From a virus (Duplodnaviria; Caudoviricetes), in IMG/VR virus record IMGVR_UViG_3300010167_000010, positions 1 through 64,000 of that record: 64,000 bases of DNA; one strand, given 5' to 3'. Below the pieces are notes generated by a model. It did no database searches, had not been told where the DNA came from, and saw nothing but the letters and a program-made list of their open reading frames with translations. Below are positions 23,727 to 41,658 of this stretch, piece by piece. The position numbers were made by a program, and so were the translations under genes. The first letter of the stretch is position 1, and the number at the start of each line of letters is the position of its first letter.

Positions 23727-24221
23727 ATGAAAGCAAAGTGTAAAGATTCAACTATTGAAATGTCTAATGAAGAATTTCAAGAAAAATTAGATAATTTAAT
23801 TACCAAAGAATTAATGAATCTTTTAGGTTCTTACTATCAAGGTAGTGAATATTTACAACCTATGGCAAAACAAGTTGTAGAAAATGCATCACATCTTGTT
23901 TTATTTCCAGTTCAAAGTGATTTAAAATATTTACAATTATCTGGTTGGTTTAAATGTGATGCTGAAAATTGTGATTGGAAAGGCTTGAATGGTATTTCTA
24001 GAGAAAATTATTTTTTAATTAGAAATTTACCCTGTCCAAAATGTGGAGCCAATATTTTCACAGATGCAGATTATAGTGGAATGGCATCAATAAATTGGGT
24101 AATGGGTTGGCCAATTATTAGATTTTTTAATTGGATTGGAAAACTTTTTAATATAAAAACTTCAAAGTTTTTAGTTAAAATGGACGGAACTGGGAAAGTA
24201 AATTTAGAAAAAATAGGTTAA
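23727..24221 (+). CDS. hypothetical Zn-finger protein
   Basis: KCDAENCDW...CPKCGANI. Confidence 0.6.
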   Translation: MKAKCKDSTIEMSNEEFQEKLDNLITKELMNLLGSYYQGSEYLQPMAKQVVENASHLVLFPVQSDLKYLQLSGWFKCDAENCDWKGLNGISRENYFLIRNLPCPKCGANIFTDADYSGMASINWVMGWPIIRFFNWIGKLFNIKTSKFLVKMDGTGKVNLEKIG

Positions 24222-24251
24222 TATAATAAAAATAATTATTGAGGAGAAAAA

Positions 24252-24632
24252 ATGAAAGTTGGAGCAATTGTTACATTATGCTCGTTTTTGTTTGTCGGAC
24301 TAATATGTCTGTCAATGTGGGGATGTCCAACGTATAGCGTTTGGAGTCAAGAAATGAAAGGTCGTGCAGAATTAGCACGAGCTGAACAAAACAAACAAAT
24401 TATGTTTATTGAAGCGCAAGCAATGCTTGAAGCAGAAAGATTTAATGCACAATCAGAAATTGTTAGAGCTGAGGGTATGGCTCAAGCTATGGAGATTGAA
24501 AATGGACAATTAACAGATATTTATATTCGATATTTATTTGTTAGAGCATTAGAAAATCTTCCAGAAGGTACGCAAGTTATTTATTTACCTGCAGCTGATT
24601 TTATGCCAATAAATGAGGCAGGAAGACGATAA
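24252..24632 (+). CDS. membrane-anchored band-7/SPFH-like protein
   Basis: TM followed by P.YSVWSQEMKGRAELARAE...AEG.A.A...YIRYL...VIYLP. Confidence 0.6.
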   Translation: MKVGAIVTLCSFLFVGLICLSMWGCPTYSVWSQEMKGRAELARAEQNKQIMFIEAQAMLEAERFNAQSEIVRAEGMAQAMEIENGQLTDIYIRYLFVRALENLPEGTQVIYLPAADFMPINEAGRR

Positions 24633-24652
24633 AGGAATTATAACTAAATAAT

Positions 24653-24727
24653 ATGAATATAAAAACCATTTCCAAACATAATTGTCTCTTTACAGCCATT
24701 TATAGTGATTGGAGGTGTCGGCCTTAA
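24653..24727 (+). CDS. 24-aa leader peptide MNIKTISKHNCLFTAIYSDWRCRP of a putative attenuator
   Basis: ACTAAATA 10 nt upstream; its 3' end can pair with the terminator 5' arm. Confidence 0.7.
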   Translation: MNIKTISKHNCLFTAIYSDWRCRP

Positions 24728-24786
24728 TTAACTTATAGAAATATAAGGAGGTGTATTAAGGCCGCAGAGAAATCTGCGGCTTTTTT
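24716..24786 (+). terminator. attenuator: antiterminator CGGCCTTAAT/ATTAAGGCCG overlapping terminator GCCGCAGA-GAAA-TCTGCGGC-T6
   Basis: mutually exclusive hairpins read directly from the sequence. Confidence 0.75.
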
Positions 24787-25079
24787 ATTGAACGATATTT
24801 TTTATATTCTTATATTCATTTTAGGAGGAAAAATAAATTGGGAACGTGCATAGAGTAAATGAGTATATGATATTTTTAATAATATCGTTTTATTATGATT
24901 GTGATTTAGAAGATGTAATTAACGACCGTATAGAAAAAGGTCGATATAAATATTATTGTTATTTATATTAAAATTGTTATTTGAAATGCGATGGTAAAAG
25001 TGGAATGCAATTACCAGATAGGGAAGGAAATATATTAAGTTACGTGTAGTTTGCTGTCTACTAATAAAACAGCAACTTT

Positions 25080-25152
25080 GCCGAATTAGCTCATTTAGCA
25101 GAGCCACCGCCTTGTAAGCGGAAGGTGACGGGTGCAATTCCTGTATTCGGCT
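25080..25152 (+). tRNA. tRNA-Thr(UGU)
   Basis: GCCGAAT/ATTCGGC acceptor; loop CT-TGT-AA. Confidence 0.85.
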
Positions 25153-25156
25153 TCAT

Positions 25157-25229
25157 ACACGATTGTTGTAGTGGTGCTGCAAACTTGTCTGATAAACAAG
25201 AAGTCTTAGTTCGATTCTAAGATCGTGTA
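25157..25229 (+). tRNA. tRNA-Ile(GAU)
   Basis: CTTGT-CTGATAA-ACAAG; TTCGA T-loop. Confidence 0.88.
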
Positions 25230-25336
25230 TCCAGGAACTTGGGGAATTCACGTCGGAGGACGGCCAAAGGTCCACAGGTTAAGTTCTATAGCGAAAGCGA
25301 ATGTTATATGCCCAGGACACTTATTTTGAAGGAGAA

Positions 25337-25600
25337 AATATGCTAAAGAAAATTAGAAAAATTGGAAGTAAAATATGGGATGGGTTTGGTTGGATATCAG
25401 ATAAACTTTCACCATTGTTAGCGTTGATATTTGCATTGCTATTTGCAATTTATTTATTCGCAACGATAATGGATTTTAGTATTTCAAATTTATTTCACTG
25501 TGTTTTAGGTGCATTATTTTTTAATACATTTGCGAGGATATCAATTAAATCGGTGATCATTGAAAGAGAAAAAGAGAAAAGAGATTTAGATAATAGTTAA
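25337..25600 (+). CDS. membrane protein
   Basis: AAGGAG RBS before MLKKIRK; two TM segments. Confidence 0.55.
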   Translation, partial: NMLKKIRKIGSKIWDGFGWISDKLSPLLALIFALLFAIYLFATIMDFSISNLFHCVLGALFFNTFARISIKSVIIEREKEKRDLDNS

Positions 25601-25616
25601 TTTATAAATTATAAAT

Positions 25617-25702
25617 GCGTCGTTATCCCGTAAGTAGTAGCGGTGCTGGCTGTAAACCAGTTGGCCGAAAGGCCTCGGGTGGTGCAACTCCATCACGGCG
25701 CA
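25617..25702 (+). tRNA. tRNA-Tyr(GUA)
   Basis: GCTGG-CTGTAAA-CCAGT; long variable arm. Confidence 0.9.
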
Positions 25703-25704
25703 AT

Positions 25705-26076
25705 ATGGAAAAAGATATTCTTTTTGAAAATGAAGATATCCAAGTTTACAAAGAAAAAAGAAGTGAGGATGTTGGATTAATGTTTGGAACTATTATTCCA
25801 ATTTATTCTCGTGAAGTTACAAAAAGAACTTTATTCCAGAAAATAAAAGATTGGTTTAAATGGTATTGGGATAGATTAATTTATTATCCATTCTTTTATG
25901 AAGAAATGGAATTTCCAATGTGGCATGTTTATAAAATAACAGATACTAACGGAATAGAACAAATGGTTCAATTATTAAGAATGCAAAAATTTGGTGAACC
26001 AATTCCACCAGATGCGGTGGATGAATATTTTAGAGATATGGAGATTCCAGGATGTATTATAAATCCTGAAAAATAA
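25705..26076 (+). CDS. hypothetical protein (start revised to follow tRNA-Tyr)
   Basis: MEKDILF... starts just after the tRNA. Confidence 0.55.
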   Translation: MEKDILFENEDIQVYKEKRSEDVGLMFGTIIPIYSREVTKRTLFQKIKDWFKWYWDRLIYYPFFYEEMEFPMWHVYKITDTNGIEQMVQLLRMQKFGEPIPPDAVDEYFRDMEIPGCIINPEK

Positions 26077-26255
26077 AAAATGGAAAAATCAGAATTTTTT
26101 GAATTGATACGTGAGGGTTCATATAAAGGATTTTATAAAATAATTATAGATAAAGGTCCACCTTATTGGGGCCCAATCGTTAATCGCGAACAAGCAGAGG
26201 AAATGTGGTCCCGCTTCAAAAATAGCGGACAAACTTTTGAGGAATTCGTTAAGGA

Positions 26256-26759
26256 ATGGTTATGAAATATCTAGGTCCAGAAAATCAAAGACCATGGAGT
26301 AAATTGGGAAGGGAAATCAAAAAGCTATTTGATCCAAAACTTCCACTTCAAATTCATTGTGTAGCTAGAACAATGAGAGGAAAAAACGCAATTGGTTCAA
26401 CGAGATTTCCAAGATATTGGATAACTTTGGGCAAAGAGATCATTTTCGATTATCCTGGACAATTTATGGAAATGATAGATCATGAAGCAAAGTCATGGTG
26501 TAGAAGTTCAGAAAATGATGGTTTTTGCCGAATTAAAGATTGTTATCCTTACGAAGAGCACGATGTTTCAGAGATATCTAATCTAATTAGAGAATACATT
26601 GATAGAGAAAAAGATAAATTATTCGAACCATTTGAAAATGACAGATGGGGTTTAATAGATTATTTAAGAGCTTCTGACAGGAGGATTGGAAAAAGAAGAT
26701 TAGAAAAAATACAAACAGAAAATGAATATGTAAAAAAAATTATTAAAATGAGGGGCTGA
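26256..26759 (+). CDS. conserved hypothetical protein (SF0329-like)
   Basis: WSKL...RYWITLGKEIIFDYP...DRRIGKRRL. Confidence 0.55.
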   Translation: MVMKYLGPENQRPWSKLGREIKKLFDPKLPLQIHCVARTMRGKNAIGSTRFPRYWITLGKEIIFDYPGQFMEMIDHEAKSWCRSSENDGFCRIKDCYPYEEHDVSEISNLIREYIDREKDKLFEPFENDRWGLIDYLRASDRRIGKRRLEKIQTENEYVKKIIKMRG

Positions 26760-27130
26760 AAATAGTTTCGATTTTTATGTTCAGCGTATTTGATTTTAGG
26801 ATAGTCGGCGAGACGATAAACAGCAAATAATTAATCGGCGAAACATACGATTATAGTTATGACAGACCTGTTAGAAATAACAGAGCTGCATTCGCGAGAG
26901 CGGCATAACCGATCCTGTTAGAAATGATAGTATCTAATAAGGGTTGACACCATGCTATCAAAGGCGAAAACTTTTTACTGATGGGTTTAGCATTAAAATT
27001 AAGATCAGTTGCAACTGGAGATACGAATTGCTTGTTGTTGATATCTCGGTTAGTTCGTAGAAACAAGATATTCCTATAGAGAATTAAGTATTGCAGTAAA
27101 AAGACGGCGGGGCAGAGCCGCCCAGCTCCA
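26752..27130 (+). ncRNA. ssrA: tmRNA; tag (A)GETYDYSYDRPVRNNRAAFARAA* at 26837-26908
   Basis: 5' GGGGCTG..TTCGA and 3' T-arm + CAGCTCC-A with G3:U70; internal tag ORF ending AA*. Confidence 0.92.
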
Positions 27131-27139
27131 CTTATACAA

Positions 27140-27211
27140 GCTCGGATAGCTTAGGTAGTAAAGCAATCGACTGAAAATCGATTTTCCCGGATGCGAGCGC
27201 CGGTTCGAGCA
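27140..27211 (+). tRNA. tRNA-Phe(GAA)
   Basis: ATCGA-CTGAAAA-TCGAT; atypical T arm. Confidence 0.8.
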
Positions 27212-27395
27212 AAACGCAAGCTTGCGGTTAGGAGATTAAAATGGATTTTAAATTAGAACTTACTTATGGTGAAGCATGCTCATTAAGAGATCTTTTATCT
27301 ACATTTCCTGATTGGGAAGATGTTGTAAAACAACTCAATAAATATATCGAATGGTATGAAAACGAATATCCAAAAAGGTATGGAGTAAGTTAAAT

Positions 27396-27653
27396 ATGTC
27401 AGAGTTAAAAACTCAAGAAAAATTAAAAAGTTGCTTCGAATGTAGATATAATATAATGAATGAAATACACCCAAGAGATTGGGCTTATACTGAAGAAACT
27501 GGATATTGTTTTTTTAAGAAATTAAAAACTAAAAGAGAAAATTATTGTGATGATCACATTAAAATTGGAATTGGAAAATTAATCAATATAAAAGTTTTTA
27601 ATGATGATAAACAAATGATAAAAGAAGCAATACAATATCTTCAGAGTTTATAA
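27396..27653 (+). CDS. hypothetical Cys-containing protein
   Basis: CFEC..GYC..YCD. Confidence 0.55.
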   Translation: MSELKTQEKLKSCFECRYNIMNEIHPRDWAYTEETGYCFFKKLKTKRENYCDDHIKIGIGKLINIKVFNDDKQMIKEAIQYLQSL

Positions 27654-27658
27654 AAATT

Positions 27659-27742
27659 GGAGAGGTAGTCAAGCGGCTTTGGCGGGACTCTTGAAAAGTC
27701 TTGTACCGAAAGGTATCGTGAGTTCGAGTCTCACTCTCTCCG
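27659..27742 (+). tRNA. tRNA-Ser(UGA)
   Basis: GGACT-CTTGAAA-AGTCT; long V arm; G73. Confidence 0.9.
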
Positions 27743-27746
27743 TAAA

Positions 27747-27860
27747 GATGACTGTAGCTCAGTGGTAGAGCACTTAAACCGGATCGTGTATATGGTCTTC
27801 ACCGCAATTCTAAACGCAATTTTAATGCAGTGGTCGGACGTTCAAATCGTTCCAGTCATC
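27747..27860 (+). ncRNA. tRNA-like RNA whose anticodon arm is replaced by a ~55-nt insert carrying the ACxGCAA motif
   Basis: acceptor GATGACTG/CAGTCATC, D arm GCTC/GAGC, T arm GGACG-TTCAAAT-CGTTC; no anticodon loop. Confidence 0.75.
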
Positions 27861-27900
27861 TAATGGTTATACTTAATGGGGTCGCACCTCATTAAATGAA

Positions 27901-27961
27901 TGTCGTGATGGGGATAGGTTTCCTCTGGCGCCACGATTGGGTTCGAGTCCCAAACACGATA
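27901..27961 (+). ncRNA. anticodon-less mini tRNA-like RNA
   Basis: TGTCGTG/CACGATA stem plus TTGGG-TTCGAGT-CCCAA T arm. Confidence 0.55.
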
Positions 27962-28097
27962 TAAAATTGAGTTGAAAGAACCAGGTTGCTACTGGAAGTT
28001 TAATTAACTTCCTTGAAAATTGCCTCACTGTCTTTTGGGAGTGCGCACTCCTTAATCCGTGCGGATCAGGTTAAAGTCGGCGGAGGAAAACTCAAAT

Positions 28098-28181
28098 GGG
28101 CGGTTGCCAGAATGGGATTGGAGCGGGCTTTTAACCCGTTGGAAAATTCTTCCAAAGAGTGTTCGATTCACTCATCGCTCA
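28098..28181 (+). tRNA. tRNA-Lys(UUU) with long variable arm
   Basis: GCGGG-CTTTTAA-CCCGT; V arm TGGAA/TTCCA. Confidence 0.82.
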
Positions 28182-28188
28182 AGTTTTA

Positions 28189-28262
28189 GGGCACATAACT
28201 CAGATGGTACGAGTCCCTGACTTTTAATCAGGTTGTCGGTGGTTCAAATCCACCTGTGCTCA
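28189..28262 (+). tRNA. tRNA-Lys(UUU)
   Basis: CCTGA-CTTTTAA-TCAGG, canonical. Confidence 0.92.
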
Positions 28263-28283
28263 TAGTAATACTAAATTTTATAT

Positions 28284-29441
28284 ATGCACAATTTTTTTAA
28301 TAATACTAAGAATAAAATTACTCTTATAATTTTATTGATGACAACAATCGCTTATGCTTCTTTATACTTTGTAGTTTATTTTACTGTAAAAGATGCATTA
28401 GATAGTAAAATGATTAATAATGTAACTTCAATTGCTGCATCTATATCAAAAACTATTGAAAATGATTTAGATAGATATTTATATTTTATAGAAACTAAAG
28501 ATATTTATTCAGATTATTATTTAGAAATGAATAGACATTTTGCACACCTAAAAGAAATTGGTTCATTAGCATATATTTATACAGTACGATTAGTTTGTGA
28601 TAACTATCTAGAATTTTTATTAGATGGTGAATTAAAATTTTCTGAATATTGGTCTGCACCGGGTGAATTAGAAGAAATTGATATAGGTGGAATAATTGCT
28701 TATTCAGAAAATAGGGTAGTTGGATTAAGAGATAAATCTGAATGGGGAGATTTAATAGTTGGGTATGCACCCATTCGTAATAAAGACGGAGAAATAATAA
28801 GTTTAGTTGGTGTTGATATTAGTGGTGATTTATTAAGTTCTTATTTGAATAAAATACAAATAATTTTAATTTTTCTTTATGCTATTTTATTAATTGTAGT
28901 TTGGATATTTGCAAAACAATATTCTAGTTCTATAGTTAAATCTATGTCAAAAGATAAACTTACTGGCGCTTATATAAAAAGATATTATGAATCAATATTA
29001 AAATATTGTGTTAAAAAAATGAATAGGAAAGATGATAAATTATTTGTAATGATTTTAGATTTAGATCGTTTTAAAAATATAAATGATAATTATGGTCATC
29101 CTTTCGGCGACAAAGTTTTAACAGAAGTTTCTAAAACAATTATGGGAATTTTAAGAAATAGAGATTATTTAATTAGATATGGTGGAGAAGAATTCGTAGC
29201 AATAATTCAATGCGATAAAGATATGAGAATTGAAGATGTAGCGAACAGAATTAGAATAGCTGTATCTGAGACTAAAATTTATAATGAAGAGCATAATAAA
29301 GATATTAGTTTAACTATTAGTATTGGCATAAGTGTTTATTTTCCAAAAGGAAAATCTTCAGATATGATACATCAGGCTGATAAAGCTTTATATGAAGCTA
29401 AAAAAGAAAGAAATAAAGTACATAGATTTATAAAAGGATAA
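28284..29441 (+). CDS. membrane-bound diguanylate cyclase (GGDEF domain)
   Basis: 2 TM around a periplasmic sensor; DKLTG, DLDRFKNIND.YGH..GD, RxxD I-site, RYGGEEF, ADKALYEAK. Confidence 0.93.
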   Translation: MHNFFNNTKNKITLIILLMTTIAYASLYFVVYFTVKDALDSKMINNVTSIAASISKTIENDLDRYLYFIETKDIYSDYYLEMNRHFAHLKEIGSLAYIYTVRLVCDNYLEFLLDGELKFSEYWSAPGELEEIDIGGIIAYSENRVVGLRDKSEWGDLIVGYAPIRNKDGEIISLVGVDISGDLLSSYLNKIQIILIFLYAILLIVVWIFAKQYSSSIVKSMSKDKLTGAYIKRYYESILKYCVKKMNRKDDKLFVMILDLDRFKNINDNYGHPFGDKVLTEVSKTIMGILRNRDYLIRYGGEEFVAIIQCDKDMRIEDVANRIRIAVSETKIYNEEHNKDISLTISIGISVYFPKGKSSDMIHQADKALYEAKKERNKVHRFIKG

Positions 29442-29443
29442 TT

Positions 29444-29923
29444 ATGGAAAACTTTAAGTTAAATAAAGATGCTAAAGATTATATTAAACATTTTTTAACT
29501 ATAATTTCAATAGCAGCTGCGTTTTGTATTTTTGTTGGTTTAACAATTGATTTTATTACTGTTGATGAAGTAATTGTGAGCCCAATTCAAATAATGGCAC
29601 TTATAGGAATTATAATTGGTGTAATTACTGCATTTTTTTTAATACCAACTTTAATAATATTTATAATTATTTTTATAAATCATATGAAATACTATAAATC
29701 TGTTAAAGGTTTATGGGGTTCTATTTTAGTAAATATTAAAACAGAAGAATTAGATTTAACAGAAGAAGCAATAGAATCAGAACAAGAACGAATTAAAAAG
29801 CATAACGAATTAGTTTTTTATTTTACTAAACAATGGATGATAGAAAATGAAGATAAACAAACTGAATGGATAAAAATACAATTAGAAAAATATTATAAAG
29901 GTGAAATAGAAATAGAAGAATAA
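29444..29923 (+). CDS. membrane protein
   Basis: 2 TM segments. Confidence 0.6.
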   Translation: MENFKLNKDAKDYIKHFLTIISIAAAFCIFVGLTIDFITVDEVIVSPIQIMALIGIIIGVITAFFLIPTLIIFIIIFINHMKYYKSVKGLWGSILVNIKTEELDLTEEAIESEQERIKKHNELVFYFTKQWMIENEDKQTEWIKIQLEKYYKGEIEIEE

Positions 29924-29940
29924 TAAAGGAAGAATTTAAT

Positions 29941-30105
29941 ATGCTAAAAACTATAAATGAAAAAGAATTTGTTAAGAAAATTGAACAAGCAATTAAAGAA
30001 AAAAATGCTGATTGGCTTTCTGAAAATATGTGGCTTATACATAATTGTGATGAATGGCACAAATTAGCAAAAGAAAGAACAGAAGGAGCAGAATTATTTG
30101 ATTAA
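29941..30105 (+). CDS. 54-aa protein with C-terminal ELFD tag (not in ORF track)
   Basis: MLKTINEK...ERTEGAELFD*; AAGGA RBS. Confidence 0.65.
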   Translation: MLKTINEKEFVKKIEQAIKEKNADWLSENMWLIHNCDEWHKLAKERTEGAELFD

Positions 30106-30108
30106 ATT

Positions 30109-30195
30109 GGAAGATGACCTCAGCCGGGACGAGGCTCGCCTGCTAAGCGATGGGTACATAAAATGGCCAACCGAGTTCGATTCTCGGATCTTCCG
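30109..30195 (+). tRNA. tRNA-Ser(GCU)
   Basis: loop CT-GCT-AA; long V arm; G73. Confidence 0.85.
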
Positions 30196-30198
30196 TAA

Positions 30199-30400
30199 AT
30201 TATATCGGACAGTCGCTAATAGAAATTTTTTTATTAGAGGAAACTCAGGGCACCTCGAATCAATTGAAGGAGATTTTAAATCGTTATTACTTCAATAGGG
30301 TGCAACACAAACAGACTAAGAGGATGGATCTTGCTCTATGAAGTCGGGTAGTGGCTTAGATAGATGACTGTTAAAACAGAACCCTGGTTATGGATATAAT
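30199..30400 (+). ncRNA. rnpB: minimal RNase P RNA (catalytic domain only)
   Basis: P1 ATTATATC/GATATAAT; GAGGAAACTCAGGGC and AACAGAACCCTGGTTA P4 halves with compensatory changes; CAGTCG/TGACTG P2. Confidence 0.88.
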
Positions 30401-30406
30401 TAAAAT

Positions 30407-30479
30407 GCTCGAGTGATAGTAACGGTAAGCTATCCACTCTTATAAGGTGGACGTGGTGGTTCAAATCCACCCTCGAGTA
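30407..30479 (+). tRNA. tRNA-Ile(UAU)
   Basis: CCACT-CTTATAA-GGTGG. Confidence 0.85.
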
Positions 30480-30557
30480 ATATTGAACTGAGTCAATAAG
30501 TCCTAGGTAACTCAGTATTGGCCCAGCTACGATCTGGAGAGGGAGCGGGCCTCTTAT

Positions 30558-30629
30558 AGGTTCGTGGTGTTAACAGCAGCATTTCGGTCTCCAAAACCGC
30601 GGGAGCGGGTGCAAATCCTGCCGAACCTG
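30558..30629 (+). tRNA. tRNA-Trp(CCA)
   Basis: loop CT-CCA-AA; AGGTTCG/CGAACCT; G73. Confidence 0.88.
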
Positions 30630-30676
30630 AAAGTAATAAGATATTTAACTTATGATATGTTAATATACTAATTATT

Positions 30677-31411
30677 ATGATTGGGATATATAAAATAACT
30701 AATAAAATAAATAATAAATTTTATATTGGAATGGCAGAAGATATAGAAAAAAGATGGATTAGACATAAAAATTTGGATAATCATTCTTGTATAAAATTAC
30801 ATAGAGCAATGAAAAAATATGGAGTAGAAAATTTCATATTTGAAATTATTGAAGAATGTTCAAGTCAAATTATAGCATGGGAAAAAGAACGTTTTTGGAT
30901 AAAAGAATTAAAAGCTAGAGAATTAGGATATAATATAAATGAAGGCGGACATGGTGGTGACACCTTTTATGGTCAATCTTTAGAAAAACAAAATGAAATA
31001 AAAGAAAAAATAAGAAAAGCAAATTCAAAACCAAATTTTAAATTAAGAGGAAGAATTCAATCAGAAGAAGAAAGAAATAATAGAAGAAAACCTCAAATTG
31101 GAAATAAAAATGCTTGTGGAAAAAGAACAGAAAAACAAAGAAAAAATATAAGTGATTCTTTAATTGGAAAAACATGGGAAGAAAAAATGGGTAAAGAAAA
31201 GTCTGATATAAGAAAAGAAAAGGCTAAAGGAAATAAATATGCTTTTGGCCATAAAAAAACTGAAGAAGTAAAATTTAAATGTGGAAATTCAACTAGAAAT
31301 AAAATTTGGTGGACAAATGGAAAAAATAATATAATAGATTTTAATTGCCCAGAAGGTTTTTGGAAAGGAAGAACTGTATTTTGGAGCAGAAAAGGAATAA
31401 AAAACAAATGA
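30677..31411 (+). mobile_element. free-standing GIY-YIG homing endonuclease (Seg-like, NUMOD tail)
   Basis: IGIYKITNKIN..FYIGMA....RW..H...E...GYNINEGG. Confidence 0.88.
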
Positions 31412-31980
31412 AAATTTTAGCAATGAATAGTAATTATATTCCAATAAGAATTATATCTAAATATACTGCTATATGTAAATTTTATAACAATATGGTAGAA
31501 TTTATTTATATAAAAGGAAATAATTGGGAAGCAAAAAACTGGGAACAATGGCTTGAACTATCATCAAAGAATATTTGGCCAGAAGATACTGACTTTATAA
31601 ATTCAGTAAATTTTCGTATTGCTGTACCAAAGGTAATAAGATTTTTAAATTATTCAAAAATTCCAAAAGTGACATTTAGACTTTCTCGTAAGTCAATCTA
31701 TGAGAGAGACAATTTTACTTGTTACATTTGTGGAAAAAAGTTCGGTGAATCTAAGCTCTCAATAGACCACATGAGACCAGTCTCAAGAGGTGGCGGAAAC
31801 AGCTGGGAGAATATGATCACTTGCTGTGTAAAGTGCAACTGGGACAAAGGCGATAAGACTCTCGATGAGCTCAGACTCAAGCCAAAGTTCATGCCTTACA
31901 AGCCACAGATGTCTAATATGCAAAAGCTAAAAGCATCTGTAACTACATATCAGCCTGAATGGAAACTTTTTGGTTTTTAG
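31408..31980 (+). CDS. HNH endonuclease (McrA-like; start revised from 31345)
   Basis: IYERDNFTCYICG...SIDHMRPVSRGG.NSWENMITCC..CN..KG. Confidence 0.9.
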   Translation: MKILAMNSNYIPIRIISKYTAICKFYNNMVEFIYIKGNNWEAKNWEQWLELSSKNIWPEDTDFINSVNFRIAVPKVIRFLNYSKIPKVTFRLSRKSIYERDNFTCYICGKKFGESKLSIDHMRPVSRGGGNSWENMITCCVKCNWDKGDKTLDELRLKPKFMPYKPQMSNMQKLKASVTTYQPEWKLFGF

Positions 31981-32094
31981 AAGTTAATATAAAATTAAAG
32001 TTGTCCAACTTAAATGGACTGGTGGAGGTGACTTAACCGGTCACCCTATGCGATGGCTCGATGGAGCCCCTTGAGTGGGAAACATCGCTTTTAT

Positions 32095-32165
32095 GTCTCC
32101 GTTGTTCAGTAGAGAGCAAATGGTCTGCAAAATCATTAGAGTTGGTGCAAGTCCAACCGGGGACT
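32095..32165 (+). tRNA. tRNA-Cys(GCA)
   Basis: ATGGT-CTGCAAA-ATCAT; U73. Confidence 0.88.
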
Positions 32166-32166
32166 A

Positions 32167-33381
32167 ATGATGAATATTGAAAAATTAGAATCAAGATTAG
32201 AAGATACTCATAAAACAGTTGCTGTATTAAGAGGAATGCTTGAAGAGTCTTTAATTCAAGAAGTATGTAAATTTTTAATTACTATTGGAAAAACTGAAGC
32301 AACAAAAATTTGTGCTATGTTAGATGAACAAACTTTAGAAACTATAACGTTTGAAATAGCTAGACGAGAATATCTAACTGAATCAGAATGTCAAAATATT
32401 TTAGAAATGTTTTGTAATTTATATGATAATGATAATTTTATAGTTTTAGGTGGAATAAATTATGCCAAAGATTTAATGACAGAAACTGTTGGCGAACAAA
32501 AAGCTATAGATATATTAAATAGAATGTCATCATCATTACAAATTAAACCATTCGACTATATAAGAAGATGTCATCCTATAGATTTATTAAATATAATTCA
32601 ACAAGAACATCCTCAAGTAATAGCTTTAATTTTATCTTATTTAGAACCAAATAAAGCATCTATAATGTTACAAAATTTACCAGCTGAACTAAGATCAGAT
32701 ATTACCAGAAGAATAGCTTGCATGGACAGTATAGAACCAGAAACTTTACGAGAAGTTGAAAGGGTTTTAGAAAAAAAATTATCTACATTATCTGCTGAAG
32801 ATTATTGGAGAAATGCCGGCGGATTGCCAGCGGTTGTAGAAATATTAAATTTGGTTGATAGAGAAGTTGAAAAACAAGTTATAGAAAATTTAGAAGATGA
32901 AGACCCAGAATTAGCTGAAGAAATTAAAAAACGAATGTTTATATTTGAAGATATTGTTATGTTAAATGATCATTATATACAAAAAATATTACGAAATGTA
33001 GATAGTCAAGAGTTAGCTAAAGCATTATTTAATGTAGATTCAGAAGTACAAAATAAAATATTTAGAAATTTTTCTAAACGAGCTGAAGCAATGTTAAAAG
33101 AAGATATGATTTATATGGGTCCATTAAAATTAAAAGATATCGAAGAAGCTCAACAAAAAATAGTTTCTATAATTCGTAAATTGGAAGAAGACGGTGAAAT
33201 TTCACTTAATAGATGTGGTGAAAATGAAATGATTTCTCCTAATCTAAATATAGATGAAAAAGTTCAAGAACAAATGAAAAAAGAACATGAAGAAAATAAA
33301 TTGATATTAAATAGCGAAGAAAAACATAATTTTTTTTGGAAGCTAATTCTTAGAAAAATAAAAAGGTTAACTAATGGGTAA
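32167..33381 (+). CDS. fliG: flagellar motor switch protein FliG
   Basis: [15 protein letters not shown] linker, [22 protein letters not shown]...IEEAQQKIV. Confidence 0.95.
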
Positions 33382-34771
33382 ATACGTATTAGATCAAGAT
33401 GATATTGATGATTTAGTAGAAAATGACGATTGGAAAGAATCTTTTAGTTTTAAAAAAGTTAAGGGAAAACATAAAATGACTGAAGTATTAAGTGCAAAAG
33501 AAATAGACGAATTATTAAAAGCTATTAATGCTGGAGAAACTGATCCAGAAGATTTAAAACCGGCGTGTAATGCTAGAAAAATAAAAATATACGATTTTAA
33601 GCGTCCTGATAAATTTTCCAAAGAACAAATTAGAACTGTTTCAATAATGCATGAAACATTTGCTAGATTAAGTACTACTTTTTTATCGGCCAGATTAAGA
33701 CAATTAGTTCATGTTCATGTTGCTTCAGTTGATCAATTAACTTATGAAGAATTTATTCGTTCTGTACCAACACCTACTACAATGGCAATTATAAACATGG
33801 ATCCATTAAAGGGTAGTGCAATATTAGAAATTGATCCTGCAGTAACATTTGCTTTTATAGATAGATTATGTGGTGGAACTGGAGAAGGTACAAAATCTCA
33901 ACACGAATTAACTGATATTGAAATGAGTTTAATGGAAGGAATGATTGTACGATTATTGGGAAACATAAGAGAAGCCTGGTCACAAATTATAGATTTACGA
34001 CCACGATTAGGACAAGTAGATACTAATCCACAATTTTGTATGATAGTACCACCAACTGAAATGACAGTTCTTGTTACATTTGAAGTAAAGGTTGGTGATG
34101 TAGAAGGAATGTTTAATTTATGTATTCCACATATTTTATTAGAACCTATAATGGATAGAATGTCAGCTGCATATTGGTATGGGAGTGGTTGGAATAATAC
34201 TGTCCCTAAAACTTTTAATCAAGAAAAATTAGATAATATAGATGTTTCTTTAAGAGCTGAATATTTTAAAACTACTATGTCGTTATCACAATTAAGTTAT
34301 TTATTAAATAATAATGGAATAATATTAAATGAAGATCATGAAGAAAATACTGGAAAATTATATATAAATAATTTATATATTGGGGAATTTAAAGAAATAG
34401 ACGTTTTAAGAGAACATAAGAAAATTAAAATAACAAAAATAACAAATATTATGGAGAAAAATTATATGAATGAAAAAAATAATATCGACTTTTCAGGTGG
34501 AAATTTATCTGAAATTAAGGTCCAAATAATTACTGAATTAGGAAGAACTTCTAGAACTTTAAAAGAAATTTCTAGTTTTGGAGAAGGTACAATCTTAGAA
34601 TTAGATAAGTTAGCTGGAGAACCTGTCGATATATTTGCTAATAATGTTTTAATAGCAAAAGGTGAAGTTGTAGTAATAGATGAAAATTTTGGTGTCAGAA
34701 TAACTGATGTTCTTAATCAAAAAGAAAAGGAAGAGGGGCCTTGCAAAGGAGATGAAGCTCAAAACAGCTAG
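33374..34771 (+). CDS. fliM: flagellar switch FliM fused to a FliN/FliY SpoA domain
   Basis: [48 protein letters not shown]; C-terminal [36 protein letters not shown]. Confidence 0.93.
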
Positions 34772-34969
34772 TATTTTATTTTTAATTTTATTTTTAATAA
34801 CGTTTTTAATGATATTATTAAAAGTATCAATTATAAGTTTAATCTTATTTTGTATTACAACAATTTTTGCAATATTTTTAGGAGGATATTTAATATATGA
34901 GCACAATGGTCTTTGTTAGTTGTATAGTTTTATTTTTAGTTTTTTGGATTAAAATAAGTTGGTAATTTT

Positions 34970-35054
34970 GCTCAGGTGGTGGAATTTAGAAGACACCCTA
35001 GCCCGAGGAGCTAGTGCCCGAAAGGGCGTGCAAGTGCAAGTCTTGTCCTGAGTA
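34970..35054 (+). tRNA. tRNA-Leu(GAG)
   Basis: CTAGC-CCGAGGA-GCTAG (C33); long V arm. Confidence 0.85.
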
Positions 35055-35096
35055 ATATGAATGTCGATATGGAAATGTACAATCCATGAAGTTCAT

Positions 35097-35158
35097 ATCT
35101 TGGGAAAGAGCAGGCTAGAAATGACCCCTGGGTGAGTGCGAAGTCTCACCTCCAAGAT
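35097..35158 (+). ncRNA. anticodon-less tRNA-like RNA
   Basis: ATCTTGGG/TCCAAGAT stem plus GGTGAG-loop-CTCACC T-like arm. Confidence 0.45.
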
Positions 35159-35161
35159 TAT

Positions 35162-35236
35162 GCCATCGTAGCCCAACGGCAGAGGCACTACGCTTAGAAC
35201 GTAGAAAGGTGTCGAGTTCAAATCTCACCGATGGTA
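35162..35236 (+). tRNA. tRNA-Leu(UAG) with short variable loop
   Basis: CTACG-CTTAGAA-CGTAG. Confidence 0.82.
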
Positions 35237-35468
35237 CTTATACAATAAATATTATAGAGGTAGATTAAAATTACTTTAAGTGTCCTCTACTAAATAGTAA
35301 TAAAGTGAAGATAAATATTATGAGTATTGAATTTAATCAAAAAGTAGTTTGTGAAGATTGTAAAGAATTACTAGAAAGTGAATACGAGATAATTTCTGAA
35401 GCTACTGATAAATGTGATTTTTGTGATAAAATTGGAAAATTTGAAATAATACTTTTAATTGATTAGAA

Positions 35469-35539
35469 GCCCGATTGATGTAACAGGAGCATGATGGTCC
35501 TACAAACCGTTCGCAATGGTGCAAATCCATTATTGGGTA
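35469..35539 (+). tRNA. tRNA-Val(UAC)
   Basis: ATGGT-CCTACAA-ACCGT (C33). Confidence 0.82.
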
Positions 35540-35552
35540 AAAGGAAAATAAT

Positions 35553-35777
35553 ATGAGTAAGTTCGTAAAACAAAATAAAATGAAAGATTACGAAACTGTT
35601 GTACCTGCAAAAATACTTCATTATATGTTTACTACTCATGGTTTTCCACCAGAAATGGTAAAAGAAATGGCAGAAGAAAAGGGTTTAACAGTTGACTTAG
35701 ATGGTTTTTATAAAATGATGGAATTAGAAAAAGAAAAGTCTAGATCTAATAGTAAATTGATACAAGGTAAAATATAA
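35553..35777 (+). CDS. stand-alone fragment of the alanyl-tRNA synthetase helical domain
   Basis: MFTTHGFPPEMVKEMAEEKGLTVDLDGFYKMMELEKEKSR resembles AlaRS LYDTYGFP.....E.A.E.GL.VD..GF...M..Q+E+SR. Confidence 0.75.
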   Translation: MSKFVKQNKMKDYETVVPAKILHYMFTTHGFPPEMVKEMAEEKGLTVDLDGFYKMMELEKEKSRSNSKLIQGKI

Positions 35778-35817
35778 AGCCCCGCGTCTGGCAGCTTCGG
35801 CGTATGACGCACTTTAA

Positions 35818-35889
35818 GCAGTATATGAGTAGATAGCGACTCACGTGATTGCCAATCATGAGAGGCGGGTGCGTGTCCCGCATACTGCT
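35818..35889 (+). tRNA. tRNA-Gly(GCC)
   Basis: CGTGA-TTGCCAA-TCATG; U73; atypical T loop. Confidence 0.75.
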
Positions 35890-35891
35890 AT

Positions 35892-35974
35892 GTGAACGTG
35901 CGCGAGTGGTTAAAGCGGCTTGATTGTGGATCAAGTGGAGAAATCCATCGGGAGTTCAAATCTCCTCGTTCACC
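35892..35974 (+). tRNA. tRNA-His(GUG) with long variable arm
   Basis: CTTGA-TTGTGGA-TCAAG; C73; V arm TGGA-GAAA-TCCA. Confidence 0.85.
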
Positions 35975-35986
35975 TAACTAATTATT

Positions 35987-36349
35987 ATGAAAAAATGTTG
36001 TAAATGCAAAAACAAACAAGAAGATAAACAACCAGATTACTATTATTATGATAGAAATCCCAGAGTAACCTCTATGAGACGATTTATAAAAGAACAATAT
36101 GCATTATGGTTAGCAGAACAAAGATCCAAACCACAACAGAAAAAAGATGATGGAGAATGGAATTATAGATTTAAATTTGGAGACGTATCACCAAAACAAG
36201 CTTGGCAAACTTATTCAAAATATATTGAAGACAATGCTTGTAGATATCCAGTTTGGCCAAATTTTCATGGTCGAATGACTTCTGTTTCATCATTAGATAC
36301 TTCAAATATTAGAACTGTACAAAAATTTGGCACAACTTGGAGAGTATAA
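35987..36349 (+). CDS. hypothetical late protein
   Basis: ACTAATTA 10 nt upstream. Confidence 0.6.
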   Translation: MKKCCKCKNKQEDKQPDYYYYDRNPRVTSMRRFIKEQYALWLAEQRSKPQQKKDDGEWNYRFKFGDVSPKQAWQTYSKYIEDNACRYPVWPNFHGRMTSVSSLDTSNIRTVQKFGTTWRV

Positions 36350-36662
36350 ATGTTTATTTTTAGTTTAATAGTTGCTATTCTTGTTATAGTAATTATTATA
36401 AAAATTTCATTTAGTATTGGTTATCAAAAAGGCCATGAAAATGGTTATATGGAAGCAGAATATCGTTTCAATAAAAAATCTACAACTTATGCAAATCCTT
36501 TAGATGAAGATTTAACTGGGTATATTTAACATGTCAGCATCTGGGCGAGTATGGGAGCAGAAAGCAAGGAGATAAGGCGATGAGCGGCTCGAGCGTGGTC
36601 GTCGTGAACGGGGCGGAACCGACCGCTGGCAAACCTATATTAGTTAATTTAACTAAATAAAT

Positions 36663-37298
36663 ATGATAGGTATTTATTTAATTACAAATTTAACTAATAA
36701 AAAACGATATGTTGGTAAATCTAAAAATATTGAAAATAGATGGAAACAACATAAAAAATTAAATGATGGTTATAGACCGTCTTACTTACAAAGTGCCTTT
36801 TTAAAAGAAGGGATAGAAAATTTTTCTTTTGAAGTTTGGGAAGAATGTATTTTAGAAAAATTAAATGAAAGAGAAAAATTTTGGATTAAAGAATTAGAAA
36901 CGAGAAATCCCGAATTTGGATATAATTTAACAAAGGGTGGTGATGGGGGAGATACTTTTTATATTCAATCTGAAGAAAAACAAAATGAATTAAGAAAAAT
37001 TTTTAGTGAAAATAGTAAAAAATATAATACTATTAAATATCTTCAAACAGATAGAGCTGAACAATCAAGAAAACCTCATAGAAAAAAATTAGGCCAAAAT
37101 GCTAAAGGTAAAACATGGCAATGGAATGAAGAAAAAAGAAAAAATTATATACCTTCAAATAAAGGAAAATTAATGAATAATGAACAAAAAGAAAAACAAA
37201 AACAATATCATTGGTTTAATAATGGGATTATTCAAATAATGTCAATAAAATGTCCGGAAAATTTTAATTCAGGAATGTTAAAAAGAAAAACTAACTAA
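36663..37298 (+). mobile_element. second GIY-YIG homing endonuclease
   Basis: IGIYLITNL..KRYVGKS....RW..H...GYNLTKGG. Confidence 0.88.
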
Positions 37299-37312
37299 TA
37301 AGAAGTTTTTAT

Positions 37313-37654
37313 ATGAACAAAGGACCAATAGTTCAAAAGTTAGCTAAGCTTTTGATGTTATATCAAAATGCGGCGTCTACCCGTGGTGAAAAAGATGTAG
37401 CAATAATTAAAATAAAAAACTTATGTGAACAACATAAGTTAAAAATTGATGGAAATACTGTTATTGATTTAGAAGCTGTTAAAAAAGTAGAAACACAAAA
37501 AACAGCACCTATTTCACCAGTAGTAAAACAAACTATTTTAGGAGACCCATCAGCGTACAATAGATATGTATATTATAATGGACAAAAATATTATGGAAGG
37601 GTACCTAAACATATTTATGAAAAAGATAATGAAATTAGAAAAAGAAAATTTTGA
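37313..37654 (+). CDS. DUF2786-like helical protein
   Basis: KLAKLLML..NAASTRGEKDVA..K...L. Confidence 0.5.
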   Translation: MNKGPIVQKLAKLLMLYQNAASTRGEKDVAIIKIKNLCEQHKLKIDGNTVIDLEAVKKVETQKTAPISPVVKQTILGDPSAYNRYVYYNGQKYYGRVPKHIYEKDNEIRKRKF

Positions 37655-37767
37655 ACAATAACATTATTTTTCTTATATAATTAATGTAAGGGAGTGGAAA
37701 CACACCTTTATAGAGTGAGTAAGGCAGAGCCGAGGCGGAGCAACTTAAATGTTGAACCCAAAACTCT

Positions 37768-37865
37768 AAAAGAAGTCTGTCAAAGAACTAGTGGTCAGAG
37801 CCGGATTGATACTAGTCAGGTAGGCAGCCGGGTACGGTAATATGGGTTCGATTCCCATCTTCTTT
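37768..37865 (+). ncRNA. tRNA-like RNA with acceptor and T arm and an unrelated interior
   Basis: AAAGAAG/CTTCTTT plus ATGGG-TTCGATT-CCCAT. Confidence 0.5.
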
Positions 37866-37953
37866 TATTCGGAGTGAGTAAAGAGCGGCTTATTTACTAG
37901 TAGCCGGGACTCCGAGTTTTTGAAATTGATCTCCGAGGTTAGGAGTTCAAATT

Positions 37954-38181
37954 ATGTACAAGTATGGTAGAAAAATCGCAATAGAGAATTGCGCAAAAGG
38001 TATGATGACTGTCAAGACATTGGCAAATGCATTGTATTACATGGGTTATCGGTATTCTGATGACGAAGTAAAAGAATTAGTAAATAATTGCTTAGATGGT
38101 TCCGGAGACTTTGTGAGCTTGTCTGGAGCGGCAGTTAATATAATTAAAGATGGTCAGCTGTTTGGTTATGGAACTCACTAG
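37954..38181 (+). CDS. hypothetical early protein
   Basis: AGGAG RBS. Confidence 0.55.
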   Translation: MYKYGRKIAIENCAKGMMTVKTLANALYYMGYRYSDDEVKELVNNCLDGSGDFVSLSGAAVNIIKDGQLFGYGTH

Positions 38182-38518
38182 TGGAGTATACTGCCGGCAA
38201 ATCTGCATTCATCAAAATGTTGGTCAAAAGTATTAAGTTACAGGACGGCCTTCATAGATAGTTGCCATAGCTTAGTCTGCGCGCTATCAAAAATAAATGG
38301 TGGCATAGTGGCCTTAAATGTCGTATGGCAGCCAAAATATTCCGTCACAGTCATAACGGATATAAAAAGACTGGTCGCCTAAAGGTTGCGACTAATAAGT
38401 GAACCAGTTAAATTGCACCGAGTCGACAGTGCCGAGGTTGGAATGCTCCGCGTTAATAAAAGCAAGTTGCAGGCGCCTGCACATTAAAATTATTAGACCT
38501 TACGTATAGCGTGAGGGT

Positions 38519-38586
38519 TTGCAAGAATTGAAGTGCCGGGATCCGCGGATTATTAACTGGTAGAGGGTGCAACTCCCTCCTTGCAA
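38519..38586 (+). ncRNA. anticodon-less tRNA-like RNA
   Basis: TTGCAAG/CTTGCAA plus GAGGG-TGCAACT-CCCTC. Confidence 0.5.
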
Positions 38587-38601
38587 AGAGTTTTATTTTT
38601 A

Positions 38602-38674
38602 CAGAGTGTAGACCAAATAGATGGCCGCCTGTTTTGGAGACAGGAGATTGGAGATGCGAGCGCTCCCGCTCTGA
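38602..38674 (+). tRNA. tRNA-Pro(UGG)
   Basis: CCTGT-TTTGGAG-ACAGG. Confidence 0.82.
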
Positions 38675-38682
38675 TTTATTTT

Positions 38683-38754
38683 GGCGCTATCGGCTAATGG
38701 TTAGGCCAGCAGGTTTTCAACCTACTAATCGGAGTTCGATTCTCCGTAGCGCTA
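38683..38754 (+). tRNA. tRNA-Glu(UUC)
   Basis: loop TT-TTC-AA; canonical D and T arms. Confidence 0.88.
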
Positions 38755-38850
38755 TTATACTATGTGTTTACCAACTATCAACGTTGGGCTGGAACAGTCG
38801 GAATACTAAATTAAATTGTTTATCCGATATGCCAGTGCATAGTATTTTAT

Positions 38851-38924
38851 TCCCTGGTAGCTCAGTTGGTATGAGCAACTGGCTGTTAACCAGTTGGTCC
38901 TAGGTTCAAGTCCTAGTCAGGGAG
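38851..38924 (+). tRNA. tRNA-Asn(GUU)
   Basis: ACTGG-CTGTTAA-CCAGT; TCCCTGG start; G73. Confidence 0.93.
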
Positions 38925-38929
38925 AAACA

Positions 38930-39400
38930 AAATCCCACCGCCCCCGGGTTTTAGAAAAACAAGCGGAAAGGGTATTGCGGGTCGTTAAACCTTGACGACA
39001 ACAAGGACGCAAGTTAAACCGGACGATGCTAATGGCGGAGAGTCTTAGCGGGACGGAATCTATATGGTGTAGGTAGCACATCGACCGCAATGTCGAAGGT
39101 TTGAGATCGGAACTCAATATAGAAAAATTTCAATGTTAGGATTTAGACCACGATAGCTTGGCGATCAGATGGCGTACAAATGAGTCCATTCTGAGCAAGT
39201 AGCGACAATAACTAGATTCCGGCGAAATTCGACTGACCGTCGTATAAAGTCAAATGAGTAAACCTTGATTAATGGTGCTGAATAGCTACAGTGATTAATC
39301 CGTAAATGTTCACGTGACGAACTGAGTTTGGCGACAAGTCTTTGTAATATGTCGTGGGTATTTGGTACCATTTACCCTGCTTCCGGAGCAAAAAATGGTA
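38930..39400 (+). ncRNA. large structured ncRNA, possibly GOLLD-like, with an embedded tRNA-like cloverleaf (39059-39123)
   Basis: ~470-nt GC-enriched stretch with no credible ORF, between tRNAs; many hairpins; embedded cloverleaf has a 6-nt anticodon loop. Confidence 0.5.
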
Positions 39401-39406
39401 CAATTT

Positions 39407-39482
39407 GCGCTACTGGTGTTAATAGTTTTGAGCATATCAGTCTTCCAAACTGGTGGGGAGAGTGCAAGTCTCTCGTAGCGCT
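39407..39482 (+). tRNA. tRNA-Gly(UCC)
   Basis: TCAGT-CTTCCAA-ACTGG; U73. Confidence 0.88.
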
Positions 39483-39601
39483 TAATACGGGAAACCGGGT
39501 GTTGTTGGTACGCTTCCAACGAACTAAATAAGTCTAGGAGTAGACAACTATTTTAGGGATTGGATCAGGATCTCGTGTTAAATCCGAGAAACCAACTTTA
39601 A

Positions 39602-39676
39602 GGGCTTGTAGCTCACAGTAGGTAGAGCGCGTGCTTTGCAAGCATGAGGTAGACCGTTCGATCCGGTTCAGGTCCA
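39602..39676 (+). tRNA. tRNA-Ala(UGC)
   Basis: CGTGC-TTTGCAA-GCATG; G3:U70. Confidence 0.92.
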
Positions 39677-39695
39677 TTAGTTAATTTAAAAATAC

Positions 39696-39840
39696 GGGCA
39701 AGTAGCATATCGGCAAAGTTTGGGGGAGTGCAGGAGTGCACGCTGATCTCGTCCATTTGCTAAAATAGTCTTAATGCGCTCCTGTCAGCCATGTCGACAT
39801 TGGCGAGGTAGAGAACTTGGTGCAAACCCAAGCTGGTCCA
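39696..39840 (+). ncRNA. expanded tRNA-like RNA with an Ala-type G3:U70 acceptor and a large D-loop insertion
   Basis: GGGCAAG/CTGGTCC-A; GCAT..ATGC D stem; CTTGG-TGCAAAC-CCAAG T arm. Confidence 0.55.
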
Positions 39841-40027
39841 TTTTTAATTTATAAGAAGTAATTTACAGCTGGGAGCAGCCATATATCATCTAGTAAAATA
39901 TTACGTATTGGATAGCCGTATGATGAAAAAATGATATGGAATTACTGGTAAAACTTGCTATCTAAGGAAAGCATTTTACCGCAGAAGTGGTCGATATGTT
40001 ACTGCGAATTAAAAAACTAATCGATTG

Positions 40028-40099
40028 GGTTGTATAGTCTAGTGGTTAGGACGGGAGATTGTCAATCTCTTAGCGCGGGTTCAATTCCCGCTACGACCG
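40028..40099 (+). tRNA. tRNA-Asp(GUC)
   Basis: GGAGA-TTGTCAA-TCTCT; G73. Confidence 0.92.
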
Positions 40100-40309
40100 A
40101 TAGTCGTGTAAACTGGAAATAGGAATGGGAAACACGACTTAAAATAATGGAACTGCCTTTCCAGTGCTGAAGGTTCCACCGTTCATGTTTGTTACCTCCC
40201 TTATAAAAACATGATACGGCATTCCGAGGTTTGGTGCCAAGCAACAAACTAGTAGGTGCAATGCAACTATGTATCGGAATGGTTTCCAAATAAATAAAAA
40301 GGAAATTTT

Positions 40310-40525: not shown

Positions 40526-40574
40526 CCCTTATCTCATAAGTAAGTGGAAGATGGAGCATTACCATCTATTGGCA
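40505..40574 (+). tRNA. tRNA-Met/Ile(CAU), degenerate D arm
   Basis: GCCAGTA/TATTGGC; CTTAT-CTCATAA-GTAAG. Confidence 0.6.
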
Positions 40575-40579
40575 AACGA

Positions 40580-41652: not shown

Positions 41653-41658
41653 TTATTA

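Follow-up and report, generated by a model that had tools for sequence, protein, structure and literature searches.

A conserved leader unit upstream of a phage tRNA island has the anatomy predicted for a ribosome-dependent transcription attenuator

Directly upstream of the tRNA island of a giant phage lies a short unit composed of a promoter-like start motif, a 24-codon open reading frame (ORF), two complementary arms and an intrinsic terminator. We propose this unit to be a ribosome-dependent transcription attenuator acting on its own short transcription unit: a ribosome at the leader stop codon would bring about termination, and slow or absent translation would allow read-through. Strong support for the attenuator-like anatomy comes from within-genome statistics and from its conservation across four phage lineages, covarying positions included; the proposed mode of action we hold to be an evenly balanced proposition. 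A preliminary description of this DNA had located the motif, the ORF, the complementary arms, the terminator and its T6 tract, all of which are present as placed. The attenuator architecture it proposed is borne out by the lineage comparison: all four share ORF length and frame, a stop codon within the upstream arm and a rare but invariant CTC codon, and both helices show compensatory changes.

Results

The window, i.e. the whole stretch of DNA that was analyzed, covers positions 1 to 64,000 of a 329,018-bp virus record (the phage under study, here named G000) with direct terminal repeats and 28.5% GC. It contains at least 19 tRNA genes, a tmRNA gene (26752-27133; Rfam match at threshold) and a reduced RNase P-like RNA (30197-30406), a ~210-nt class A-like species whose Rfam score is under the gathering threshold (69.5 vs 100 bits, E=1.6e-19). 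Upstream of the leader unit ends P0001 (24252-24632), a gene for a 126-residue protein with an N-terminal hydrophobic segment.

The unit opens with ACTAAATAAT (24643-24652, + strand), a copy of the class III gene-start/promoter motif, with an ATG immediately 3′. Extending the first part of this motif, ACTAAATA (24643-24650, + strand), to the 13-mer ACTAAATA[AT]TATG yielded 22 copies in the genome, compared to 0.3 in dinucleotide shuffles. All but one of these copies (21/22) start ORFs of 120-2239 codons that lack a Shine-Dalgarno (SD) sequence, the ATG at 24653 being the sole one to open a short ORF. The ACTAAATA box is also found 5′ of ORF-less RNA units and farther upstream of SD-led genes, which argues that it would act as a promoter, with the RNA starting at or next to the ATG, rather than as a ribosome-binding site. 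For the leader, such a start implies a putative leaderless or near-leaderless transcript. PHROGs annotation of ten genes 3′ of the class III motif did not establish these as a late class. Pfam models of RNA polymerase and sigma region 2 had no match anywhere in the genome; for the polymerase that would read the motif, a response to hairpin terminators is assumed.

The leader ORF (24653-24727, + strand) comprises 24 codons and encodes the peptide MNIKTISKHNCLFTAIYSDWRCRP. As counted previously, 16 different amino acids occur in it, with only part of the peptide being conserved, at the nucleotide level. There is no codon run for one amino acid, and tandem codons for the amino acid of a controlled pathway are absent from the leader, which holds only scattered rare codons and the invariant CTC. 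The peptide is polar and basic, without a hydrophobic stretch, unlike the small ORF of a type I toxin system (a hydrophobic membrane peptide plus antisense RNA). The GC-richer codons highlighted in the preliminary description are real—six of 23 leader codons have a relative synonymous codon usage (RSCU) below 0.3, as opposed to 8.5% of gene codons—but the effect is modest, as at least six such codons are present among the first 24 in 9% of real genes. Across the four lineages, a similarly modest excess of rare codons is seen (4-6 per 22-24 codons); most of those in the leader fall in paired segments.

Two sequence boxes stand out within the ORF. The first is the core CTCTTTACA (24686-24694, + strand), which specifies Leu-Phe-Thr, is identical in all four lineages and is pyrimidine-rich and anti-SD-like, pairing best with GUAAGG(G)AG-type SD contexts. 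Its CTC codon is rare (RSCU 0.14) yet invariant, and a tRNA-Leu(GAG) is encoded by both G000 and the related phage G001. The second is an SD-like box (R1, GGAGGTGT, 24711-24718, + strand) that lies 9 nt 5′ of the stop codon; its counterparts (GGAGG, AGGAG or AAGGA) are found 7-9 nt 5′ of the leader stop in each lineage. Past its TAA, the G000 leader frame remains open for 42 codons (24653-24855), through the terminator and the promoter behind it; this is not so in G001, and the open frame probably arose by chance.

The end of the leader ORF is embedded in the first of the two complementary arms. Arm A (CGGCCTTAAT, 24719-24728, + strand) includes the Pro codon CCT and the stop codon TAA, and arm A′ (ATTAAGGCCG, 24755-24764, + strand) is its exact reverse complement. 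A′ overlaps the intrinsic terminator GCCGCAGA-GAAA-TCTGCGGC (24761-24780, + strand), sharing 4 nt with the 8-bp stem (arms 24761-68 and 24773-80) and 7 nt with its 11-bp extension (24758-24783). The 8-11 bp stem is GC-rich, has a GNRA loop and is followed by the T6 tract (24781-24786). Another SD-like box (R2, AAGGAGGTGT, 24745-24754, + strand), after which a conserved ORF is absent, is positioned in the antiterminator loop. R2 pairs with GGCCT of arm A in the terminated fold, and its region, AAAGGA(N)GTGA, is common to all four lineages.

We compared this arrangement with the 32 strict hairpin-plus-T-tract terminators mapped in the genome, using as a competition score the energy gained when the 5′ arm of a terminator may pair with the 108 nt upstream. 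The competing helix of the leader unit (-10.6 kcal/mol) ranked first among the 32, followed by a terminator at -6.1 kcal/mol (median about -2), and was matched by 4/1000 dinucleotide shuffles of the upstream RNA. In folds of the growing transcript, the minimum-energy structure includes A:A′ when the 3′ end falls between 24764 and 24780, with the terminator fold being preferred at full length only, when both the stem and the U tract are complete (-36.7 vs -32.3 kcal/mol). While + strand terminators usually begin 6-51 nt past a long ORF, the one described here begins 128 nt past P0001 and 33 nt past the leader stop. It is the only strong + strand terminator in the 24.7-44.6 kb interval, so read-through would go far. 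An Rfam cmscan search (E<=1, 24000-44000) returned no match within 24643-24786.

A single further + strand terminator is similarly remote from any long ORF. It belongs to a unit outside the window (G000:C1:152417-152600), in which a class II motif (GTTAATATA) precedes a ~170-nt, strongly structured, ORF-less RNA (-53 kcal/mol). This unit is probably a small RNA gene.

Copies of the same phage in three other samples are 100% identical over the region and thus hold no usable variation. Related phages were reached in two ways. Scanning for the conserved 5′ leader of the sigma70-like promoter class led to G001 (IMG/VR contig 3300006226_001721, 94 kb), and homologues of the upstream protein P0002 led to L120 (identical to L121 and L122) and to L123. 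Together with L113, a 174-kb metagenome contig that has the leader unit of G001, this allowed comparison of four lineages (G000, G001/L113, L120-122 and L123), the relatives being uncultured phages. The preliminary description had suggested that similar leaders be sought in related phages, and three further lineages indeed carry them. G001 encodes 24 tRNA/tmRNA genes, its tRNA island likewise holding a tmRNA, and its minus strand (76937-76785) aligns to window positions 24643-24797 with 72% identity; within 5 kb, only six stretches could be aligned, this one included.

Other searches added no lineage. Pattern scans of viral and other genomes recovered G001 only, plus one chance match in a Methylomarinum MAG; in a metagenome pattern scan, 12 of the 13 matches were due to chance; and a search of INPHARED phages in distant mode gave tRNA matches only. 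G002 is without the leader unit and G000 without a paralogue of it. Homologues of P0001 (~50% identity; one source-annotated as HflC/stomatin-like) are numerous and were discarded as a route to relatives, as they reside mostly in unrelated 40-60 kb phage contigs devoid of synteny; the closest ones (63-66%) have a tRNA or tRNA-like sequence immediately 3′ and no leader. Conversely, the leader-bearing relatives are without P0001, and their leader unit comes after the P0002 homologue; in G000, P0001 is inserted between P0002 and the leader unit. On the minus strand of G001 (76940-76928; L104:14929-14941), the P0002 homologue stops at a TAA within the ACTAAATAA box, one base 5′ of the leader ATG, and translation of the G001 leader by termination-reinitiation could therefore also occur.

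The ACTAAATAAT start motif is kept in G001, L120 and L123. The homologous leaders encode the peptides MKKRSTYHSYNCLFTATIKDRSWP (G001), MRNINFVSTISKHLFTSIYSDRSWP (L120) and MNKIVLVNSKHNLFTSIYSKGQP (L123), with ORFs of 24, 25 and 23 codons, respectively, that are separated by several indels, all of them multiples of three. Each of the four ends with Pro-stop (TAA or TAG after CCT, within GCCTTA(A/G) of arm A). The peptides share a core K-H-(N)-(C)-L-F-T-[AS]-I-Y-S, the N-terminal half drifting. Maintenance of frame and length suggests that the leader is translated. At conserved leader codons there were no synonymous differences relative to G000 (0/9 in G001, 0/11 in L120 and 0/11 in L123); in the adjacent gene, codon choice differs at 43%, 30% and 43% of conserved residues, respectively. 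This points to a constraint at the nucleotide or codon level, fitting a regulatory leader over a working peptide.

The two competing helices are preserved as well. The antiterminator comprises 9-11 bp in the four lineages, with A′ sharing 3-5 nt with the 8-bp terminator stem, and has energies of -10.6, -9.1, -11.8 and -9.0 kcal/mol (G000, G001, L120 and L123), which were reached by 1, 2, 0 and 0 of 400 shuffles. A:A′ offsets 0-7 are paired in all four lineages, as an anchor-based pair table shows. Two-sided changes were found at offsets -2 (C-G to T-A), 7 (T-A to A-T), 10 and 12, and offsets 4 and 6 alternate between A-T and G-T only, i.e. pairs that are G-U compatible on the + strand only, which argues for an RNA structure rather than a DNA site. 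Likewise, the terminator stems (GCCGCAGA, GGCGACTA, GGCCATCC and GGCGAGGA) differ at 4-5 of their 8 pairs, with pairing kept throughout and GNRA loops in three of the four. Counting against the attenuator reading, both antiterminator arms are largely conserved in sequence, so that the covariation rests on few positions in only four lineages, and both are subject to extra constraints, arm A from the Pro-stop codons and arm A′ from the terminator base. A two-sequence alifold prediction suggests a long-range helix; no consensus pause hairpin or 1:2 helix common to the four ORF regions was found.

One base past the T tract starts a strong class I sigma70-like promoter (TTGAAC-N15-CTTATAT, 24788-24815, + strand), a perfect copy of its class that the preliminary description overlooked. 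The class motif TTGAAY-N14-16-CTTATAT occurs 20 times in the genome, always on the + strand (0.8 copies expected); other sites in G000 include 20903, 37651 and 57167. As a rule, a conserved GTAAGGGAGA SD and an ATG come next, about half of the copies having an almost invariant leader, AATATWTGTAAGGGAGAT, plus ATG. A terminator followed by a promoter is the usual layout in this genome, and the same order of terminator and TTGAAC recurs at 289200. G001 and L120 keep the class I promoter at the same position, and L123 has a degenerate form of it.

Behind this promoter (24838-24971, + strand) come an SD, a six-codon mini-ORF (24838-24858; TTG GGA ACG TGC ATA GAG TAA) and, via a TAAATG overlap, a small ORF of 34-41 codons (24846 or 24867 to 24971). 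The sequence of this region is conserved in L120 and partly in L123, with the mini-ORF in both, and it may constitute a second layer of leader control before tRNA-Thr. The first tRNA genes that read-through would reach are tRNA-Thr(UGU) and tRNA-Ile(GAU) (25080-25233, + strand), with tRNA-Thr starting at 25080, 294 nt past the T tract and in agreement with the ~300 nt reported earlier. L120 has a tRNA-Thr(UGU) at the corresponding place. In G000 and L120, the genes reached first would hence be the small ORF and tRNA-Thr (and Ile); in G001, they would be tRNA-Asn and tRNA-Ala.

The earlier proposal of a leader that switches on the tRNA island is not supported as it stood. The class I promoter, lying 3′ of the terminator, renders the tRNAs independent of terminator read-through, and transcription of the tRNAs mainly from downstream promoters is what the preliminary description had itself named as evidence against its proposal. 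Moreover, between 25.5 and 45 kb the island contains no fewer than 12 further motifs of class II (GTTAATWTA) or class III. With so many internal promoters, a single leader cannot be the switch that had been suggested; together with the class I promoter, they imply that the unit can only add read-through transcription to the first segment. Such read-through could still be relevant should the host-type class I promoter fall silent as infection proceeds.

Discussion

Several features that define leader-peptide attenuators are present in the unit, namely a short 5′ ORF, an intrinsic terminator, a mutually exclusive antiterminator and an ORF end that overlaps arm A; tandem regulatory codons and a promoter-free stretch between the terminator and the downstream genes are absent. 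The sequence of events that we propose would begin with an RNA whose AUG is at the 5′ end, or a few bases in, as transcription starts at the ACTAAATAAT motif. On naked RNA, arm A (24719-28) would pair with A′ (24755-64) as polymerase advances, tying up the base of the terminator stem and giving read-through. A ribosome finishing the 24 codons would come to sit on CCU-UAA and, as this end lies inside arm A, would cover that arm. SD-like sequences are known to pause ribosomes and termination after proline to be slow; the SD-like box 9 nt before the stop and the C-terminal Pro could thus hold the ribosome on arm A. The freed A′ would form the terminator with 24773-83, and a ~134-nt transcript would be released. 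If ribosomes are scarce or stall early, e.g. at rare codons including the invariant CUC, arm A would stay free and transcription would continue past the class I promoter to the small ORF, tRNA-Thr, tRNA-Ile and further. The sequence features, both competing folds and their covarying conservation are observed; where the RNA starts, that the ORF is translated, that ribosomes park at its end, which way the switch works and to which physiological signal it responds are the parts of this model that we infer.

Could the attenuator serve more specifically as a broad sensor of host tRNA damage, switching on a replacement tRNA/tmRNA island, as proposed in the preliminary description? This reading shares the architecture of the favored model and draws on the 16 amino acids of the peptide, the 4-6 rare codons per lineage, the invariance of the CUC codon together with the tRNA-Leu(GAG) of both phages, and the tRNAs and tmRNA downstream; phage tRNAs are moreover known to counter tRNA-targeting defences (PMC10264068, PMC11555353). 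We consider it doubtful in view of the class I promoter right after the terminator and the at least 12 further motifs inside the island, of the nearest tRNAs varying by lineage (Thr and Ile in G000, Asn and Ala in G001), and of there being no feature that would link the unit to tRNA cleavage over any other slowing of translation. Sensing of host tRNA cleavage by the leader is, at this stage, pure conjecture. If the unit were instead a gene in its own right, encoding a 24-residue peptide between a dedicated promoter and an ordinary terminator, with a competing helix devoid of a regulatory role, this would account for the persistence of the ORF in four lineages, where indels keep the frame and the peptides have a common core and end in Pro, for a codon use that is more gene-like than that of chance ORFs of its size (26% vs a mean of 37% rare codons) and for a terminator-promoter order that is usual in G000. 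A peptide gene would, however, be expected to accumulate synonymous changes (30-43%), of which there are none at 9-11 conserved codons, and would not keep a terminator-overlapping helix of 9-11 bp with compensatory changes in every lineage; its N-terminal half is not conserved and rare codons are over-represented relative to genes. We therefore judge a mere peptide gene to be quite unlikely.

A regulatory RNA of ~134 nt, possibly with a dual function as in rnTrpL/peTrpL, would likewise be flanked by a promoter and a terminator of its own, as is the ORF-less 170-nt RNA unit at 152417-152600, and an attenuator that also acts in trans has a precedent (PMC7968998). In this scenario the terminator merely ends the RNA, and the CU-rich core, whose nucleotides are conserved, would base-pair with SD regions, for example that of the conserved GUAAGGGAGA leader of class I mRNAs. 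Duplexes between the core and translation initiation regions with GUAAGGGA leaders indeed average -10.4 kcal/mol, compared to -5.4 +/- 2.5 for other start regions (rank 9-27 of 454). Against this, the target was picked after the fact, the core pairs equally well or better with many ordinary GUAAGGAG SDs, and duplex energies computed with the whole leader fail to distinguish class I leaders from controls (-19.8 vs -18.8). A small RNA would also leave the frame-preserving ORF and the stop codon fixed in arm A without a reason, making this explanation very unlikely. Finally, a protein controlling the adjacent class I promoter might use the inverted repeat as a DNA operator. In favor of this, the repeat is co-conserved with the promoter and situated 25-70 bp 5′ of the -35 element; yet the pairs kept at offsets 4, 6 and 10 are G-T on the + strand only, which fits RNA and not a symmetric DNA site, the arm spacing varies from 23 to 31 nt, and the arms overlap the ORF stop codon and the terminator, leaving an operator with next to no probability.

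Leader-peptide attenuation is a textbook bacterial mechanism, with trpL, hisL, pheL and pheM being established leader-peptide attenuators of amino-acid operons or pheST, and bmrB-bmrCD, vmlR and lmo0919 being antibiotic-responsive, ribosome-mediated attenuators. To our knowledge, there is no leader-peptide attenuator that starts on a leaderless transcript, and a limited full-text literature search found none reported in a phage or 5′ of tRNA genes. The phage unit shares with the former group the short leader ORF, the intrinsic terminator, the mutually exclusive antiterminator and an ORF end that overlaps the upstream arm, such that a ribosome at the stop would lead to termination and an earlier stall to read-through (for the pheL attenuator, see PMC3082878). 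It differs from this group in having neither a codon run for a single amino acid nor a conserved 1:2 anti-antiterminator or pause helix; it is carried by a phage, is predicted to be leaderless behind a phage-specific motif, is followed by tRNAs with their own promoter and matches no Rfam leader. As in bmrB-bmrCD, vmlR and lmo0919, normal translation of the leader would make termination the default and the response would be to general ribosome slowing; those attenuators, however, control ABC-F/efflux resistance genes in bacterial chromosomes, whereas the phage cargo consists of tRNAs and small ORFs (this class of translation-stress attenuators is discussed in PMC8079631 and PMC5314783).

The G000 peptide (MNI...RP) is further reminiscent of TnaC of the tna operon, a 24-residue leader ending in Arg-Pro-stop, in which the decisive event likewise takes place at the stop codon with peptidyl-tRNA-Pro in the P site. 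TnaC requires Trp12, Asp16 and free tryptophan, and blocks Rho loading. The terminator of the phage unit is intrinsic, and the other three homologues, with WP or QP as their last residues, lack those of TnaC; the likeness is probably a coincidence. In analogy to rnTrpL/peTrpL of Sinorhizobium (PMC7968998), both the terminated transcript and the peptide could have separate functions.

Taken further, the unit might serve as a gauge of translation capacity, an extension that we regard as speculative and unlikely as a whole. Here, a leaderless leader with a ribosome-parking end would stop transcription when translation is healthy, and ribosome slowing would let a second, phage-specific promoter read into the tRNA/tmRNA genes. 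This would provide feedback on the phage's own supply of decoding RNAs, e.g. after a tRNA-targeting defence or shut-off of the host-type promoter, and the terminated RNA might additionally act in trans via its anti-SD-like core.

If working as proposed, the ~134-nt conserved element would constitute an easily tested, portable sensor of translation rate. A giant phage would then monitor the speed of translation and adjust its transcription accordingly, which would bear on why phages carry sets of tRNAs and on how they cope with tRNA-cutting defences (PMC10264068, PMC11555353).
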